Shown: positions 1,250-61,647, numbered from the stretch's first letter. The stretch: 64,000 bases of DNA from an uncultured Clostridium sp. (GCA_930991035.1 CAKNRV010000003.1:1097-65096); one strand, 5' to 3'. The notes: generated by a model from the letters alone, not told the origin. Made by a program: numbers and translations.

Positions 1250-2731
1250 ATGGAAGAGAATTTAAAATTATATCAAGATATAGCTAATCGTACTCAAGGG
1301 GATATTTATGTAGGAGTTGTTGGACCTGTAAGAACTGGTAAATCTACCTTTATAAAAAGATTTATGGATTTATTGGTTATCCCTAATATTGACAATGAAT
1401 ATAAAAGAGAACGTGCCAGAGACGAACTACCACAAAGTGCTGGTGGCAGAACAATAATGACAACAGAGCCAAAATTTGTTCCAAATGAAGCTGTTGAGAT
1501 AACAATTGGAGACAATTTAAAATTAAAAACTCGTCTTGTAGACTGTGTTGGATATTTAGTAAACAATGCAATCGGTTATTTAGAGGACGATATGCCTAGA
1601 ATGGTTAAAACTCCTTGGTTTGACGAAGAAATACCTTTTGAGCAAGCAGCTGAAATTGGTACAAAAAAAGTTATTCAAGAACATTCTACCATTGGAATTT
1701 TAGTTACAACAGATGGAAGCATAACAGATATTCCTAGAGAGGATTATGTTTCTGCTGAAGAAAGGGTTGTAAAAGAATTAAAAGACCTTAACAAACCTTT
1801 TGTAATAGTTCTAAACTCTGACGATCCATTCTCTGATTACACTAAAAATTTGGCCGCTACATTGGAGGATAAATATCAAGCAGCTGTAATTCCTGTTGAT
1901 TGCTCTAGGTTAGATATGGAAGATATTGATAACATTTTTGGAAAAATTCTATATGAATTTCCTATTGAAAAAATGAATATTAACTTTCCTAAATGGGTTG
2001 ATGGTTTATCTGATTCGCATTGGCTAAAAGAAGAATTATATTCAGAGATTAAAGATGCTTTTTCAAATATACATATTCTAAAGCAAGTGGATAATAGTTT
2101 GACTAAATTACAAAGTACTCAAATAATTGAAAAAACTGTCATTGACGAAATCAAACTAGGAGAAGGAACTATAAATATTTCTATATCACTTTATGAGGAA
2201 TTGTTCTATAAGATTTTAACTGAAATCTCTGGCGTAGATATAAAAAATGAAGGAGACCTATTCTCTACTATTACTGAATTGGCAAATACTAAAAAGGCTT
2301 ATGACAAAGTAGCAAATGCATTGGATGAAGTAAAAGCTACTGGATATGGAATTGTTACTCCTTCAATAGACGAACTAATTTTGGAAGAGCCTGAGATTAT
2401 TAAGCAAGGTACCAGATTTGGCGTAAAATTGCGCGCGAAAGCCCCAAGCATACACTTGATAAAAGCAGAAATTGAAACAGAAGTATCTCCTATAGTTGGA
2501 AGTGAAAAACAATCTGAAGAATTAGTAAACTACTTACTTTCTAATTTTGAAGACGATCCTACAAAAATTTGGGAATCAAATATTTTTGGAAGAAGCTTGC
2601 ATGAACTTGTAAATGAAGGCTTACAAACTAAACTTGCTAAAATGCCAGTAGATGCACAAGCAAAATTACAAGAAACACTAGAAAGAATTGTAAACGAAGG
2701 CAGTGGTGGATTGATTTGCATTATATTATAA
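1250..2731 (+). CDS. spoIVA: Stage IV sporulation protein A (spore coat morphogenetic ATPase)
   Basis: 493 aa. The N-terminus DIANRTQGDIYVGVVGPVRTGKSTFIKRFMDLLVIPNI matches the SpoIVA Walker-A region, and the length matches the family (~492 aa). Confidence 0.93.
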   Translation: MEENLKLYQDIANRTQGDIYVGVVGPVRTGKSTFIKRFMDLLVIPNIDNEYKRERARDELPQSAGGRTIMTTEPKFVPNEAVEITIGDNLKLKTRLVDCVGYLVNNAIGYLEDDMPRMVKTPWFDEEIPFEQAAEIGTKKVIQEHSTIGILVTTDGSITDIPREDYVSAEERVVKELKDLNKPFVIVLNSDDPFSDYTKNLAATLEDKYQAAVIPVDCSRLDMEDIDNIFGKILYEFPIEKMNINFPKWVDGLSDSHWLKEELYSEIKDAFSNIHILKQVDNSLTKLQSTQIIEKTVIDEIKLGEGTINISISLYEELFYKILTEISGVDIKNEGDLFSTITELANTKKAYDKVANALDEVKATGYGIVTPSIDELILEEPEIIKQGTRFGVKLRAKAPSIHLIKAEIETEVSPIVGSEKQSEELVNYLLSNFEDDPTKIWESNIFGRSLHELVNEGLQTKLAKMPVDAQAKLQETLERIVNEGSGGLICIIL

Positions 2732-2740
2732 ATTATGGAA

Positions 2741-2780
2741 CTGATAAATTGGGGATTGTTCCCAATTTATCAGTATTGTA
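2741..2780 (+). terminator. Stem-loop after spoIVA (13-bp stem)
   Basis: ctgataaattggg (2741-2753) pairs with cccaatttatcag (2761-2773), followed by tattgtattt. The U-tract is weak. Confidence 0.55.
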
Positions 2781-2875
2781 TTTATGTTAATATTATGCAT
2801 ATATTTTGTTTAATACCAAAAGATTAATCCTAATGCTATTCTTTATACTTCTTTTATTATACTTTTTTTCGATAC

Positions 2876-3721
2876 CTAGTTACTTTTCAATTCAACAATC
2901 ATTAACTCTGGTCTGTTATTAACTCTAAAAGGAATTATGCTGTTTCCTATTCCTCTGCTTACTACCATTGTAGTATCTTTCTCTCTGTAAATTCCATCAG
3001 TATATTCAGGAAATGTTCCTTGGTTAGGTGCAATAATTCCGCCAATAAATGGCAGTCGAATCTGTCCTCCATGTGCATGTCCTGTAAATACTAAATCTAT
3101 GTTTTTCTCCACATAAATTTTAAATACCTCGGGTCTGTGTGATAATAATATCGTAAAATTATCTTCATTATATTGTATATTTTCCATATTGTTTTTTACT
3201 ATCTTACTATCAAGAATATCACTTTCTTTATAAAAGCTTGGATCATTTATTCCTAATATATTTATTGTTGAATTATTTAATTGTATCTCTTGTGCCTCAT
3301 TTTCTAGTATTTTTACACCTAATTCAATCATTTGACTTTTTAAATTGTCATATTCATTAGTTCTAGCTTCGTGATTTCCCGTAACATAATAAATTGGTGC
3401 AATTTCAATAATTTCTTTAATCATATCTATTGCAATGTCCACATTTGTTTTAGTAGAATCAATTAAATCTCCAGTTATCACAATAATATTAGGTTTCTGA
3501 TTTTTTATCTTCTCTACTATTTTTTTTGTAAGCTTACTTGAAGTATTATTATGAAAATCTGATATTTGTATTATTTTATAATTATTAAATTCATTTGGAA
3601 TTTTGTTACTTGCAATTTGATATGTACTTACTTCTAATGTAGTGTTTTCAAAGTAAAAATATATTCCACATAGTATTAGTAAAAGACATATAATTGAAAA
3701 TATTATAGTTATTTTTTTCAC
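2876..3721 (-). CDS. Membrane-anchored metallophosphoesterase (calcineurin-like, YkuE/YpbG-type)
   Basis: N-terminal TM helix followed by the phosphoesterase motifs SDFH, GDLID, GNHE and GHAHGGQ. Confidence 0.85.
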   Translation of the reverse strand: MKKITIIFSIICLLLILCGIYFYFENTTLEVSTYQIASNKIPNEFNNYKIIQISDFHNNTSSKLTKKIVEKIKNQKPNIIVITGDLIDSTKTNVDIAIDMIKEIIEIAPIYYVTGNHEARTNEYDNLKSQMIELGVKILENEAQEIQLNNSTINILGINDPSFYKESDILDSKIVKNNMENIQYNEDNFTILLSHRPEVFKIYVEKNIDLVFTGHAHGGQIRLPFIGGIIAPNQGTFPEYTDGIYREKDTTMVVSRGIGNSIIPFRVNNRPELMIVELKSN

Positions 3722-5312: not shown

Positions 5313-7014
5313 TTGAAAATTGCAGATACTTTCAAAAAGTTTTTCTTTCCAGCAGAAGAAGAGCCATCACACGATTTTACTATGCCCAGCAGTAGCGAAG
5401 TAATTCCAAGTACGCCAGAAGAGATTGATAAACTTGATGATGTAAAAGATATTTTTCCCAGCTTGGACGTAAATATTGAGTACATCAAAGTTAAATACAA
5501 TTTACTTATAAACAGTGATATTATTCTTCGTGAATTTATTTTAACAGCCAGAAATAAGCAGTATAGAGCATTTTTATTTTTTATTGATGGTATGGTTAGC
5601 ACAGATTTAATAAATAATTATGTATTAAAACCTTTGATGCTAAAAAATCAAGCTAATTCTTTTGATGGAAATCAAAACCAAATAATTTCTGAGGCTGTGA
5701 CCAACAATATTACTGTAAGAAAGGTTAAAAAGTTTGATATTAAAGATTACATTTTAAATTCACTACTTCCACAGAATAATATTAAAATTCAAAAAGAGTT
5801 TAAAGATATTTTTGCTAGTGTAAACGCTGGTAACTGCGCTCTTTTTGTTGATACTCTAAATATTTCTTTTGATATTGATGTTAAGGGATTTCAATCAAGA
5901 AGTATTTCAAAGCCAGAAAACGAGGTTGTTCTTAGAGGCCCTCAAGAGGCTTTTATAGAAAATATACGTGTAAATACCTCTTTGCTAAGACGTATTATTA
6001 ATAATGAGAACTTGATAATTGAAAATATTAAAATTGGTAAAGTTAGCCAAACTAATTGTGCTTTATGTTATATGAAGAATATTGCTAATGACGATTTAGT
6101 AGCCGAAGCAAAGTACAGACTTAATAATATAAATATTGATTACCTTATTTCTTCTGGTCAGTTAGAGCAATTGTTTGAAGATAACAGCAAATATAGTCTG
6201 CCTCAAGTAATTGCAACAGAAAGGCCTGATAAAACCGCTACACATCTACTTGAAGGAAGAGTTGTTATTTTGGTAAATGGTAGCCCATATGCACTAATTG
6301 TTCCTGCTGTTTTTATAGATTTTTTGGAGTCTCCAGAGGACAATAATATTAAGTTTCAGTTTGCTAACTTATTAAAACTTATCAGAATTGCTTCCTTTTT
6401 AATTACTTTACTTTTGCCTGGAATATATGTTGCAATAACAAGTTTTCACCAAGAGTTTATACCAACAGAGCTATTGTTTGCAATAGTTGCATCTCGTGCT
6501 TCTGTTCCATTTTCTATTATTTTTGAAATTATTATTATGGAACTTTCTTTTGAACTTATTAGAGAAGCTGGGCTAAGGGTCCCTACTCCTATACGGTCCT
6601 ACAATTGGTATAATTGGTGCCCTGATAATAGGTCAAGCAGCGGTTGATGCTGGTATAGTTAGTCCTATCCTAATAATTATTGTTGCTCTAACTGGTATTA
6701 CTTCTTTTGCAATTCCAGATTACTATTTGGCGTTTCATTGCAGAGTAAGCCGCTTCACCTACATTATTCTAGGAGCTTTTGCAGGTCTTCTTGGCATTGC
6801 ATTTGGTGGTTTTATTCACTTACTTATTGCTACAAAAATAAAATCTTTTGGAGTTTCGTATTTAGATCCGTATATACCATCTAAAGGAAAGATTTTTAAT
6901 GGCATTTTTAATTCTCCTACTTGGAAAAAAGAAAAAAGGTCTGACTTTTTAGATACCAAAAGAGAAAACAGGCAAGAAAAAATTAGTATGAAATGGAAGT
7001 ATCCTAATCAATAA
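5313..7014 (+). pseudogene. Spore germination protein, GerA-family A subunit, interrupted by a +1 frameshift at 6594
   Basis: ORFs 5313-6647 and 6727-7014 are two halves of one GerAA/GerKA-like protein. Frame 0 reads ...EAGLRVPTPI up to 6593. The +1 frame from 6595 continues GPTIGIIGALIIGQAAVDAGIVSPILIIIVALTGITSFAIP..., the conserved GerA-A membrane segment. The extra base is C at 6594. The start is uncertain (TTG at 5313 or ATG at 5382). Confidence 0.85.
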
Positions 7015-57621: not shown

Positions 57622-59976
57622 TTACTCGCACTCATTGTACTCGTAAATTCTAATTTCTTTAGTTGCATACTCAAACTCATCCACTTTATAATTTATGTAA
57701 AAGCTCTCTTCCTTTTCAAACTCAATTTTAATTTTATTCACATCCATCAACATTTCCGAAGATAAGTCCATACCAACAGGTAATGTTTTGTTGAAATTAT
57801 CATAAAATATTATATTTGTATAAAATACTGCTGGTGCATTTTCTTTTATATTTATCTTGCATAAAGTAATTTTGGTTTTTTTACTTGATAATTCCTTTTC
57901 TATTTCATTTCGTGGATTTATATTAAATATATTCAGTCCTTCTATACTTTTTTTGCTTGTTAGGCAATATACCGACATTTCCAATGGTGACTTTATTTTG
58001 TTAAGCGATTCTTTTATATAATTCATATAATTTTCTAGATTTTCTGTATATACTTTTATATCAGTATCCATATTAATATTTAATATTTTGTATTTGTCTT
58101 TCTCTACTTCTCTGTGCTTAGTATTATTTATAGCTTTTATTTTTGTGTGGTCATCCACCATTGCTCCAAATATGTCAAAGTCTTTAGCTTGAATTTCTTC
58201 GCTATTTTTTTCATATTCTTTTTTTAATCTTGCTAAATCCTTTTCCAAAGAAGTAACCTTGCCACCTTTTTTATTTTTTACTTCTTCCTCTTCTTTTTCC
58301 TCGTATACTTCAATTGCAGTATCGTTTTCCTTTTCTTTTTCTAATTCTTTAAAAGAATCTGGAACCTGCTTTATTGCAAATATTGCATCTGTTTCATTTT
58401 TCGACAATTTTCTTCTTTGCATCTCGTCCATTTTTTTGCCTAAATCTTCTAAATCGTCCTCAAAATCAAAGAATTTTTTCATTTTAACTTTTTCTTCTTG
58501 TTCTTGCTCTTCCGCTTCTTGCAATGTTTGAGTTTCGTCCTTGCTTGTAAATTTCCAGAACTCAAAAATACTCTTTTTGTGTTTGTCTATTTCTTTTATG
58601 TATAAATCTGCATTATCAATCTTTTTAGACAAAATATTACTTTTGGTTTCAATTGCTTTTATATCTAAATTTAGGTTTGTATTTTCCTTAACTACACTTT
58701 CTAACTTTGTACAAATATTTATTAAATCTTCTATTGTATATTGTTGTTTTAATTCATACAAAGCATCTAGTGACTCGTCTTTTTTCTCTTCTTCTACTCT
58801 TTCTTTTTTTATTGGTTTTGGAGCCACTTTTACATCCTTTTTCTTTTTAAAGAAATATTTTACCTTTCCAAAAAAGCTTTTTCTACATTCCAAAAAAGTG
58901 GCAATTTGTTTTTGCCTTAAAAGATAATCTTGTGTAAGGTCTTCTACAATTACTTTAAACTTATTTAATTTTCTTTTTAATTCCTTTTGCTCTTTTTCTT
59001 CGCACTTTAATCTATCTATTTTATCTAAATATTCTAATCTAATATATTCAGAAAGTCCGCTATACTCTATTTTTGTATTTTTATGCCAAAACTCTATATC
59101 TCCTCTTTTATTAATTGCTGTTGTAAACTGGTATTCTTCCTTTGCACCAGTAGATAATATAAACATTGCTTTTAAAGTTTTATATAATTCCATTGCCTCT
59201 GATTTACTGTCTAAACTTATAACATATGTGCTTTTTATTTTTTGATATACATTAGTTTTTCCAACAATTTTCATAAAAGGATTACCTTTTTTATCAAATA
59301 TTTCGTACACATTTGGCCAATCTTTTGTAAAATACCATAAATAATTTTCTATATCTGCAATTTCACTTTTTGTTAAAATTGCTCCTGAATACTCCTCACA
59401 ACTTACAGGTGCAAAAATAAATCTACCCTTTTTGGCTCTAGTATTTGCAATTTGTTCTTTTAACAAATAAAAAAGTGCATTATTATCTTGTTCATTTACT
59501 GTAACAAGCATAAAGTATTTTTTTGCCACATCTGAATAATATATTTGCCATATATAGTTATTTGGATATTTTACTTCATACGGAATTCTATCATTTAATT
59601 TATCTTGTTCCTTTGATATTTCCTCTATTCTATTTTTATCTAGCGTTGATAACATTTTTAAGAAATTTGCAAATTTTTCTATATTTTCTTCACTTTTTGA
59701 ATCTAAATATTCGCAAATAGGACTTGCTAATTTATATCTTTCTTTTAGTTCCATTAATCTATCTGACGGAGTTATTAATACTTCTATATCTTTGATATTT
59801 ATGTATTTATATACCTTATATACTGTATCGTCATACGATTTAGAAGGTCTAAAATTTAGGTTTTCATATTGTTTTAAAAAAGTTGGCAACTTATTTAATT
59901 TTAGCCCAATATATTCTAAATTTTTTTCGATTGTTTTTTCTGCTTCTTTTGTAGTTCTAGCCATACTTAATCTCAT
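57622..59976 (-). CDS. Large (784 aa) uncharacterised cytoplasmic protein with a central K/E-rich coiled-coil region
   Basis: Long uninterrupted ORF. No TM helix, signal peptide or catalytic motif recognised. The start is ambiguous (59976 or ATG 59964). Confidence 0.7.
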   Translation of the reverse strand: MRLSMARTTKEAEKTIEKNLEYIGLKLNKLPTFLKQYENLNFRPSKSYDDTVYKVYKYINIKDIEVLITPSDRLMELKERYKLASPICEYLDSKSEENIEKFANFLKMLSTLDKNRIEEISKEQDKLNDRIPYEVKYPNNYIWQIYYSDVAKKYFMLVTVNEQDNNALFYLLKEQIANTRAKKGRFIFAPVSCEEYSGAILTKSEIADIENYLWYFTKDWPNVYEIFDKKGNPFMKIVGKTNVYQKIKSTYVISLDSKSEAMELYKTLKAMFILSTGAKEEYQFTTAINKRGDIEFWHKNTKIEYSGLSEYIRLEYLDKIDRLKCEEKEQKELKRKLNKFKVIVEDLTQDYLLRQKQIATFLECRKSFFGKVKYFFKKKKDVKVAPKPIKKERVEEEKKDESLDALYELKQQYTIEDLINICTKLESVVKENTNLNLDIKAIETKSNILSKKIDNADLYIKEIDKHKKSIFEFWKFTSKDETQTLQEAEEQEQEEKVKMKKFFDFEDDLEDLGKKMDEMQRRKLSKNETDAIFAIKQVPDSFKELEKEKENDTAIEVYEEKEEEEVKNKKGGKVTSLEKDLARLKKEYEKNSEEIQAKDFDIFGAMVDDHTKIKAINNTKHREVEKDKYKILNINMDTDIKVYTENLENYMNYIKESLNKIKSPLEMSVYCLTSKKSIEGLNIFNINPRNEIEKELSSKKTKITLCKINIKENAPAVFYTNIIFYDNFNKTLPVGMDLSSEMLMDVNKIKIEFEKEESFYINYKVDEFEYATKEIRIYEYNECE

Positions 59977-60140: not shown

Positions 60141-60178
60141 CACAAAAACAAAACCCAAGAAAGTCTTCCCAGGTTTTG
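60141..60178 (-). terminator. Probable terminator of the RelA/SpoT-like gene
   Basis: The minus-strand RNA AAAACCUGGGAAGACUUUCUUGGGUUUU (with G-U pairs) is followed by GUUUUUGUG. Confidence 0.45.
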
Positions 60179-60209
60179 TACTTCTTTTTGATAACATTTT
60201 AGCTAAGTG

Positions 60210-61094
60210 TTATCTTAATAAATTCAAAGGATCAATTGCTTTTGCAAGGCCAACCTCGTCATAAATGTTGAGACTAGCTTCGTCCGCCAGTACTCTAAAT
60301 CCAATTATGTGTACTTTGGTTAAGTCCACAGGAATTTCAACACCTTCATAACGTATGCTCTTATGAACAAAGTGACTCGCTCTACCAGCCTCAGCTCTAA
60401 TGTCCATCTCCATTGTTCTAACTTGAATCTCAATAGTTTGTTTATTTTGATTCGTTGGAGCAGCGTGTAAACATTGGTAGCCTCTCTCTTTTGGACGCCA
60501 AATATAGTCTTTTACACAATTAGAGAACGTATCTCTTATTAGCGACTTTTCTGGTATAAGCAGTCCTTCTATTTTTCTCTCAGTTTTATCATAATATGCA
60601 AGATTAGCAAGTGTATTATTTTTCTTGACTGTTAAAAACTGAAGAATTTCATTCATAAGCTCATAGCAAATAGCTTGAGTTTCTTTTGTCTCTTCTGCCA
60701 TTACAATAATTCGAATGCCAAAGAAATCTCTTAGTCTCTTCAACACCTCAGAGCTCGGCTTACTGTCTGGCTTGTTCTTTAGCAAAAGCATCATTTTTGT
60801 TAAAACACCAAGCAGGTCTTTTTGCCTACGTTTAACAATTATTGATACATTGTGCTTTTTTGAAATTTTACGGATTAACCCTTTTATCTCTCTTACATCG
60901 TCGTCAAGAGCCCTAATCATTTCTGATGACCTCATATTATTGAGTTCTATCAGTTTATTTGCACAAGCAATTCTATCCAAGTCGTCTTCATCGCTCGAGA
61001 AATCTTCAATTAGCATTTCCCATACATCGTCTATGGTAAATGCCCTTTCAAGTATTCCTTGAACATCAGGAAACCGTACTTCTTTTCTTGCCAT
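60210..61094 (-). CDS. RelA/SpoT-homolog synthetase-domain protein (divergent small alarmone synthetase / toxSAS-like nucleotidyltransferase)
   Basis: 294 aa. Motifs are RRQKDLLGVLTK (RxKxxxSxxxK-like, aa 89-100), DFFGIRIIV (aa 123-131), RGYQCLH (aa 204-210) and IEIQVRT (aa 221-227), followed by HFVHKSIRY. It also has an 85-aa acidic N-terminal extension. Confidence 0.8.
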   Translation of the reverse strand: MARKEVRFPDVQGILERAFTIDDVWEMLIEDFSSDEDDLDRIACANKLIELNNMRSSEMIRALDDDVREIKGLIRKISKKHNVSIIVKRRQKDLLGVLTKMMLLLKNKPDSKPSSEVLKRLRDFFGIRIIVMAEETKETQAICYELMNEILQFLTVKKNNTLANLAYYDKTERKIEGLLIPEKSLIRDTFSNCVKDYIWRPKERGYQCLHAAPTNQNKQTIEIQVRTMEMDIRAEAGRASHFVHKSIRYEGVEIPVDLTKVHIIGFRVLADEASLNIYDEVGLAKAIDPLNLLR

Positions 61095-61312
61095 TCTTAT
61101 ATCACCCTTTCTTAAAGTACAGTTTAGTTAAAAAGCGTTTTACTTACTTTCCTCCTTTTTGAAGTTTTTAAATGTGTTACTAAAAAATTATATCACGGCT
61201 ATACACATTTCTCAATCAAAACTCGTAGACAAATTGTGACAAATTGTGAGCTTTTTATATCCATTTATTTGCGTTTTTTCACTTTCTATAAAAATTATAG
61301 ATTTTATGTATG

Positions 61313-61342
61313 TTGACAATTTTCTATATTCTATGCTATTAT
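61313..61342 (+). promoter_or_regulatory. Near-consensus extended -10 sigma-A promoter facing away from the RSH gene
   Basis: TTGACA (61313-61318), 18-nt spacer, then TGcTATTAT (61334-61342). Confidence 0.6.
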
Positions 61343-61452
61343 GGAAATGCACCGTCTTTCTTATTGAAAGGAGGGTAGCTCTCTATGAAAGACCTGTTAA
61401 AGTTATTACAACTCTATTTTTTGTATTTAATTATAAAACAGATGGGAAAGTA

Positions 61453-61490
61453 TAAAAAAAGACTAGGAATTGCACTCCTAGTCTTTTCTC
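61453..61490. terminator. Bidirectional intrinsic terminator (better U-tract on the minus strand)
   Basis: AAAAAAA gactagga attgcac tcctagtc TTTTCT, with the stem at 61461-61483. Confidence 0.7.
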
Positions 61491-61647
61491 TATGATTGAC
61501 CTGTTATTTTTGACGTCAAATATATTTTAACATCATTTTTATTATATGTCAAATTTTTTTATTCATTTATTTTTTCAAAAAGTATCATTTATTCTATCTT
61601 TTTTGTAATGCAAATATTCAAAAAACATAGTATTTTCAATTTACTCC

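Follow-up and report, generated by a model that had tools for sequence, protein, structure and literature searches.

A resident small alarmone synthetase of an uncharacterized Clostridial subfamily, with deeply diverged alleles and an unusually structured mRNA

Small alarmone synthetases (SASs) include housekeeping enzymes at one extreme and lethal toxins at the other, and how the level of their control is determined is not settled. A 64,000-nucleotide stretch of DNA from an uncultured Clostridium sp. (GCA_930991035.1 CAKNRV010000003.1:1097-65096; the whole stretch is called the window below) raises this question at positions 60210-61094. Here, on the minus strand between thrS and a gene for a 784-aa protein (p784), lies a solitary gene encoding a divergent RelA/SpoT homolog (called RSH below). 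Is it a toxic SAS (toxSAS)-like gene, as the original prediction from the DNA sequence had proposed, or a resident enzyme, and what keeps its output in check? The reading toward which we lean, with modest confidence, is that RSH is a resident, intact SAS of an uncharacterized Clostridial subfamily, likely making (p)ppGpp or pGpp, and that its output is throttled by an mRNA structure kept by selection. The coding sequence and its parts are as follows.

60210..61094, minus strand: coding sequence of RSH (small alarmone synthetase), 294 aa plus stop codon
60840..61094, minus strand: acidic N-terminal extension of four helices, codons 1-85 (from an AlphaFold2 model and a 38-member family alignment)
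60345..60839, minus strand: synthetase core, codons 86-250 (from the invariant columns of the 38-member alignment and a hidden Markov model alignment to Rel motifs)
60213..60344, minus strand: conserved C-terminal tail, codons 251-294 (from two family alignments)

The open reading frame (ORF) matched PF04607 (RelA_SpoT) over residues 90-245 with a score of 55.6 bits (cut-off 27; 7.6e-15), as did all of the 38 family members, and scans of Pfam and NCBIfam gave only this domain, without an HD, TGS or ACT domain. Every motif quoted in the original prediction was found at the place stated: RRQKDLLGVLTK, which starts at residue 89 and follows the RxKxxxGxxxK pattern, DFFGIRII (from residue 123), GYQCLH (205), EIQVRT (222), the E-A-G-R region (AEAGRAS, 234) and HFVHKSIRY (241). 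Residues R90, K92, K100, D123, R128, K195, Y197, K202, Y206, H210, E222, Q224 and H241 were invariant in the 38-member alignment and aligned with the ATP-binding, Mg2+, G-loop and ExQxRT motifs of Bacillus subtilis and Mycobacterium tuberculosis Rel. HFVHK had been taken as a sign of divergence from housekeeping enzymes; it is present in RSH but is a mere lineage variant and not a hallmark, because the consensus across the alignment is H..YK..RY. RSH has the domain, the catalytic residues and the single-domain layout of the SAS class. The ORF is real and, as far as its sequence tells, encodes an intact SAS that is predicted to be catalytically competent. Such an enzyme would move pyrophosphate from ATP to the 3'-OH of GTP, GDP or GMP, and (p)ppGpp or pGpp would be its most likely product.

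Outside the core, the 85-aa N-terminal extension proved to be acidic, as predicted (isoelectric point 4.8; 19 Asp and Glu versus 14 Lys and Arg residues). It had no Pfam match and is family-specific, being kept across the 38-member alignment with the motifs FPD, ILE and ACANKLxELNxMR (FPD ... ANKLxE in the family). The AlphaFold2 model of RSH, with an overall predicted local distance difference test score (pLDDT) of 81, consisted of four N-terminal helices (residues 11-17, 21-32, 39-53 and 57-81; pLDDT of about 90), the alpha/beta core typical of RSH enzymes and a poorly resolved tail of short beta strands (pLDDT 40-68). This tail carries the motif DLxKVxIxGF ... IYDxVGLxKSIDPLNLL, which takes the form K..I.GF ... 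D..GL.KS.DPFN in the wider family. Inspection of the sequence revealed no YXXY or Cys/His pattern in the C-terminal 44 aa, and no YXXY or zinc-finger-like antitoxin motif was visible in either extension. We also considered the N-terminal extension as a remnant of a hydrolase domain, since ACANKLIELNNMR resembles the hydrolase motif ADRLHNMR, and rejected this: the HD_4 Pfam domain was found in none of the family members, and hhalign against the hydrolase region of long RSH enzymes gave a probability of only 0.1.

A search of 5.8 billion proteins returned just 18 relatives of RSH, all metagenomic, comprising one truncated and 17 full-length proteins (48-99% identity; 16 at 48-56% and one copy at 99%). 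When 1.84 billion cluster representatives were searched exhaustively with HMMER, a wider family emerged, with about 100 clusters at E <= 1e-10; its members are about 280-320 aa long and can be aligned over their whole length down to about 28% identity. The DNA runs that hold the RSH locus are chicken-gut metagenomes, and the locus is nearly unchanged across several studies. A context scan of JGI metagenomes returned no full-length family member, its matches being swamped by generic long RSH genes. RSH belongs to an uncharacterized subfamily of about 290-aa proteins from uncultured AT-rich gut Clostridia (chicken gut).

When compared with solved structures, the family profile matched long Rel/RelA at 1e-23 to 6e-20, RelP at 1e-16 and RelQ at 6e-11. 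The toxSASs were represented by their solved members, of which FaRel2 was matched at 1.4e-3 while CapRel and Tas1 were unmatched at E <= 10; an exported Streptomyces SAS was matched at 0.04. Foldseek with the AlphaFold2 model produced the same ranking, with the Rel N-terminal domain and RelP as the best matches and Tas1 at rank 38. The motif blocks RxKxxxxxxxK, DxxGxR, KDYIxxPKxNGYQSLH and EIQIRTxxMxxxAExGxAxHxxYK aligned residue for residue with long Rel. The view of RSH as a divergent single-domain synthetase outside RelP and RelQ was upheld by the profile scores, in which long Rel ranked higher, by its length of 294 aa (about 210-230 aa in RelP/RelQ) and by its modeled C-terminus, which is not a helical bundle.

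The genomic setting of RSH was the same in all relatives of this lineage. In every relative with a long enough contig, down to 39% RSH identity, thrS and RSH are accompanied by a gene for a 773-841-aa protein and usually then recN, and the order thrS-RSH-p784(-recN) was observed in the loci L001, L004, L007, L009, L013-L016, L107 and L108. A more distant branch (34-36% identity) has another fixed housekeeping context (U32 peptidase / RSH / methyltransferase / BipA), and in a further branch RSH lies among unrelated chromosomal genes. Among 50,697 phage records, 72,556 plasmids and 2.9 million viral contigs (IMG/VR), no relative of full length turned up, and matches there were of motif length and to generic RSH genes; PADLOC and PHROGs matches were likewise at motif level only. 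Across more than 12 loci, no conserved small partner gene stands beside RSH, and the 64-kb window holds no second RSH and no small alarmone hydrolase (SAH) gene. The absence of an adjacent conventional protein antitoxin, noted originally, was thus confirmed. A toxSAS module is defined by a conserved cognate antitoxin gene that is adjacent and in the same operon; RSH lacks this defining feature, because its loci contain no conserved small neighbor gene, and it has a promoter and a terminator of its own. The proposal of a toxSAS-like, mobile gene found no support in the comparison of the profile matches (1e-23 for long Rel versus 1.4e-3 for FaRel2, with CapRel and Tas1 unmatched), the search for mobile copies or the synteny of the relatives, all of which ran against it; synteny throughout the relatives was one of the signs that the original prediction itself had named as contrary. 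Judged by its context, RSH is a resident chromosomal gene and not a toxin-antitoxin cassette.

The transcription unit predicted for RSH is bounded by the following elements.

61187..61215, minus strand: promoter TTGAGA-17-TATAAT, TG-extended, with 11/12 consensus matches
61095..61186, minus strand: 5' leader with the Shine-Dalgarno (SD) sequence AAGAAAGGGUGAU (from sequence and predicted fold)
60148..60179, minus strand: intrinsic terminator, a 14-bp stem followed by a T run

The extended -10 promoter and terminator that had been proposed were both found, and RSH would be transcribed alone, from this near-consensus promoter to its own terminator. The pattern TTGAGA ... TGnTATAAT also lies upstream of RSH in L001, L007, L013, L015 and L108, and L016 has the extended -10 element only. 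In the predicted fold, the leader and codons 5-9 form a 12-bp helix that encloses the SD sequence and the AUG. Rfam gave no match inside the gene; the only one nearby was a sub-threshold greA-leader over the terminator. Two further elements were seen here. At 61148-61161 (minus strand), the leader contains a strong SD-like AAGGAGG without a start codon; the real SD sequence follows about 55 nt downstream, and this motif could be a decoy, a standby site or a part of the leader structure. Directly upstream of the -35 element, at 61228-61250 (minus strand), a 10-bp sequence (TCACAATTTG) is repeated in tandem (x2) and may be a candidate operator for a regulator.

The coding sequence of RSH was unusually prone to fold. 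Its minimum free energy (MFE) was -220 kcal/mol, compared with -187 ± 6.4 kcal/mol in 24 synonymous-codon shuffles, which keep the protein and the codon usage (z = -5.2), and dinucleotide shuffles of the window allele gave z = -4.9. Since the shuffles have identical composition, composition cannot explain this folding excess. Under codon shuffling, an excess was detected in 11 of 12 relatives, with z-scores from -2.9 to -14.4 (L001, -7.7; L009, -8.5; L013, -5.9; L015, -7.2; L011, -4.6; L108, -5.6; L107, -3.1; L016, -2.9; L020, -14.4; L017, -3.6; L110, -3.9), the sole exception being L012 (-0.7). The controls behaved differently: in four of these genomes, thrS, p784 and recN had z-scores of -1.5 to +0.65, a p784 segment gave -0.3 in the dinucleotide shuffle and 12 unrelated RSH genes gave -2.1 to +1.3. 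The excess was located within the first ~500 coding nucleotides, and the translation initiation region (-40..+60) had an MFE of -21 kcal/mol, ranking second of 43 genes (mean -10.0, standard deviation 4.4). The property conserved in this family is being structured, not one particular fold.

The gene also stood out in its composition. Its GC content was 36.3%, versus 26.2% in the 784-aa gene and 34.0% in thrS, and its GC content at third codon positions (GC3) of 0.303 was the highest of the 43 window genes (mean 0.179, standard deviation 0.032). In the relatives, the GC3 of RSH was 0.27-0.61, versus 0.11-0.22 in thrS, p784 and recN, and in the distant member L020 it was 0.46 on a contig of 27% GC. 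An anomalous composition had already been noted and rated as weak evidence; the anomaly was confirmed, but that rating was too cautious, as the GC3 anomaly is stronger than had been judged. In the allele class of L013, L015 and L007, GC3 was 0.55-0.61 in every member despite synonymous change equal to that of the flanking genes, which speaks for a maintained bias and against a decaying foreign composition. An amelioration test with polarized GC-to-AT versus AT-to-GC counts was discarded, since it gave impossible values for a control gene, a parsimony artifact at this divergence.

The third unusual property of RSH was the depth of its alleles. RSH proteins were 45-58% identical between genomes whose flanking proteins were 70-95% identical. 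Between L001 and L013, for instance, protein identity was 95% for thrS, 86% for recN, 81% for p784 and 58% for RSH, while between L013 and L015 the values were 95%, 88%, 85% and 91%, respectively. Nucleotide identity fell from about 90% to 52-66%, the break lying exactly between the stop codon of thrS and the start of the next gene. Differences at four-fold sites, counted in identical codons, amounted to 0.64-0.77 for RSH and 0.23-0.59 for flanking genes when allele classes were compared, and synonymous sites in RSH were saturated at this distance. Within one class, they were 0.38-0.42 and 0.29-0.44, respectively; the intrinsic rate of RSH is therefore not higher, because within a class it equals that of the flanking genes. 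The ratio of nonsynonymous to synonymous changes (dN/dS) was 0.05-0.07 within one allele class, indicating purifying selection, and divergence was uniform over the length of the protein, revealing no hypervariable sensor domain. The RSH alleles are much older than their host genomes and the neighboring genes, which implies that they were replaced by recombination or belong to a long-maintained polymorphism.

According to the reading that we prefer, the limit on RSH would be set after transcription: its translation initiation region and first ~500 nt would be locked in structure beyond what codon choice dictates, so that output is probably limited at this level, with throttling by structure as the putative means. 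Selection on synonymous sites in favor of base pairing would then explain the GC3 island in every host genome, and the slot between thrS and the gene for the ~780-aa protein would hold deeply diverged alleles, each under purifying selection. Several observations weigh against this reading. In a stricter shuffle within 30-codon blocks, the window allele reached only z = -2.3, and the alleles had essentially no consensus RNA structure in common (alifold, -8 kcal/mol, 35 pairs). Allele turnover this deep is not usual in a housekeeping enzyme. Furthermore, one relative (L015; OZ006978, the 1.7-Mb complete chromosome of a metagenome-assembled genome) has an intact 143-aa HD_4 SAH gene at 5412-5843 between thrS and RSH, with its own promoter and terminator and a GC3 of 0.45 versus about 0.13 in the flanking genes. 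SAHs are a class that neutralizes toxSAS products (PMC11782079), and this insertion, though present in only one of more than 12 loci, recalls toxSAS-SAH pairs. A bolder version appears distinctly doubtful to us. In it, RSH would be a new kind of partner-less SAS with a product so dangerous that synonymous sites in the first ~500 nt have come to form a translational lock, in effect an RNA "antitoxin" in cis from which the GC3 island in every AT-rich host results, and balancing or conflict selection, exerted for instance by phages or competitors, would keep very old alleles in the one fixed slot.

Much of this evidence could also be expected of a self-contained toxic SAS, used in abortive infection or defense and checked in cis either by its own structured mRNA (hok-type) or by its N- or C-terminal extension (fused, CapRel-like), with conflict with phages as the source of allele diversity. 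RSH has a near-consensus promoter yet no partner gene, and strong structure over the initiation region and 5' coding sequence across the family is what a dangerous product would call for; alleles far older than the flanking genes and the intact GC-rich SAH gene directly upstream of RSH in L015 point the same way, and SASs lie along a continuum of toxicity (Jimmy et al., PMC7229694). We nevertheless consider a toxin rather unlikely. The family profile is 13-20 orders of magnitude nearer Rel/RelP than FaRel2 and does not detect CapRel or Tas1, the context is a fixed housekeeping one in two separate lineages, and no defense island and no phage or plasmid copy was found. Divergence is evenly spread and marks out no hypervariable sensor domain, purifying selection is strong, no antitoxin-like YXXY or zinc-finger motif is visible in the extensions, and the SAH gene is confined to that one locus.

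Foreign origin is another conceivable source of the GC3 island: donors of higher GC content would have delivered alleles time and again to a slot prone to recombination, the GC content of these alleles being unameliorated and the mRNA structure a by-product. We regard this as very unlikely, since all of the 18 close homologs with readable context are linked to thrS and no donor context was found, since GC3 is maintained at 0.55-0.61 within a class whose synonymous sites change as those of flanking genes do, since folding exceeds that of shuffles of identical composition, and since distant members in other contexts share both properties (L020, GC3 0.46 and z = -14). On its side, RSH is a GC3 outlier in every host, divergence has sharp borders at the ends of RSH, and this slot has taken up other inserts too (in the window, a small-ORF module of 400 nt; in L015, the SAH gene). 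The idea that the coding region also acts as a functional structured RNA, in sense or antisense, strikes us as far-fetched: a strong folding excess is indeed present on both strands, and structured RNAs in AT-rich genomes are typically enriched in GC, but there is no Rfam match within the gene and no structure kept between alleles, and protein function dominates, as judged from the invariant catalytic motifs and a dN/dS far below 1.

The spacer between thrS and RSH is itself variable. In the relatives, it measures 105-176 nt and contains the RSH promoter and usually a thrS terminator, whereas in the window it measures 553 nt; the extra ~400 nt are missing from relatives more distant than the near-identical L004. 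This segment and the downstream neighbor of RSH contain the following features.

61313-61342, plus strand: promoter of the 36-codon ORF
61385-61495, plus strand: 36-codon hydrophobic ORF MKDLLKLLQLYFLYLIIKQMGKYKKRLGIALLVFSL, with a strong SD sequence
61552-61524, minus strand: convergent promoter
61457-61487: hairpin shared by both units as a bidirectional terminator
57622-59976, minus strand: gene for the 784-aa neighbor p784, with its own promoter

The convergent promoter would yield a transcript antisense to the 3' end of the 36-aa ORF, and a 20-nt direct repeat (TCTCTATGAWWGACCTGTTA) is present at the start of this ORF and again at its stop. In its layout, the region 61313-61552 resembles a type I toxin-antitoxin module.

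The p784 gene had been described as an orphan; it is not, because its product is conserved at 66-74% identity to the window's copy in all relatives examined, always downstream of RSH. The protein has a variable low-complexity N-terminus and a K/E-rich coiled coil in its center. It had no match in Pfam, NCBIfam, PADLOC or PHROGs, and its AlphaFold2 model, built from 9 sequences, was unusable (pLDDT 36). As a candidate partner or antitoxin of RSH, p784 was rejected: it does not co-diverge with RSH (70-87% versus 45-91% identity) and is missing beside distant family members of the second lineage. A link between the adjacency to thrS and the tRNA-Thr specificity of FaRel2 was likewise dismissed, and the adjacency is taken as a coincidence because distant family members adjoin other genes. 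In L108, thrS is only 68% identical to that of the window and yet p784 is 74% identical, equal to the value in genomes whose thrS is 92% identical; given this mosaic history, recombination in the neighborhood is therefore not confined to RSH. Just upstream of thrS and beyond the window end, the near-identical contig L004, from the same species, carries at 1630-3520 a DUF3800 gene and a Fic-domain gene that is preceded by a small ORF.

The RSH family has no protein partner, and yet its gene is marked by unusual selection in three independent ways, namely by its deep allele turnover, its GC3 island and its pervasive mRNA structure. If structure does limit translation, it would offer bacteria with small genomes a simple safeguard against a constitutively active alarmone synthetase. 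For annotation, the locus is a caution that a divergent RSH gene without a partner neighbor is not automatically a toxSAS, and the combination of a GC3 outlier with a folding excess offers a possible screen for other genes controlled at the RNA level in AT-rich genomes.

Among known systems, the toxSASs (FaRel, FaRel2, PhRel, PhRel2, CapRel and Tas1) share with RSH a small synthetase with extra terminal segments and the lack of an obvious housekeeping regulator, and the SAH gene that adjoins RSH in one relative can be compared with the faRel and phRel operons. Unlike them, RSH stands in a fixed housekeeping synteny without a conserved antitoxin gene next to it, no phage or plasmid copies were found and it has no hypervariable sensor domain; its profile barely detects FaRel2 and does not detect CapRel or Tas1. 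Enzymes of the CapRel type have a C-terminal pseudo-zinc-finger that serves as antitoxin or sensor (YXXY), varies between homologs and often lies on prophages. RSH has no YXXY or Cys-His tail, its divergence is uniform, and no copy was found in phages, plasmids or viral contigs.

RelQ (SAS1) and RelP (SAS2) are, like RSH, single-domain synthetases without a hydrolase, TGS or ACT domain; they share all donor- and acceptor-site motifs with it and are stand-alone chromosomal genes with their own promoter. To our knowledge, neither relP nor relQ is known for a GC3 island, for structured mRNA or for allele turnover. The RSH protein is about 70 aa longer, carries the four-helix acidic N-terminal extension and has an insertion of about 35 aa between the DxxGxR strand and the KDY strand. 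Its tail is predicted as beta strands ending in DPLN, whereas that of RelP/RelQ is a helical bundle, which builds the tetramer (PMC11782079). By sequence and fold, the best match to RSH is the synthetase domain of the long RSH enzymes (Rel and RelA), from which it differs in having neither the hydrolase domain nor the regulatory C-terminal region (TGS, helical, ZFD or RRM). Finally, for the Firmicute SAS subgroup cloRel, as listed by Atkinson et al. 2011 (PMC3153485), the fit to RSH goes by taxon (Clostridia/Firmicutes) and SAS class.

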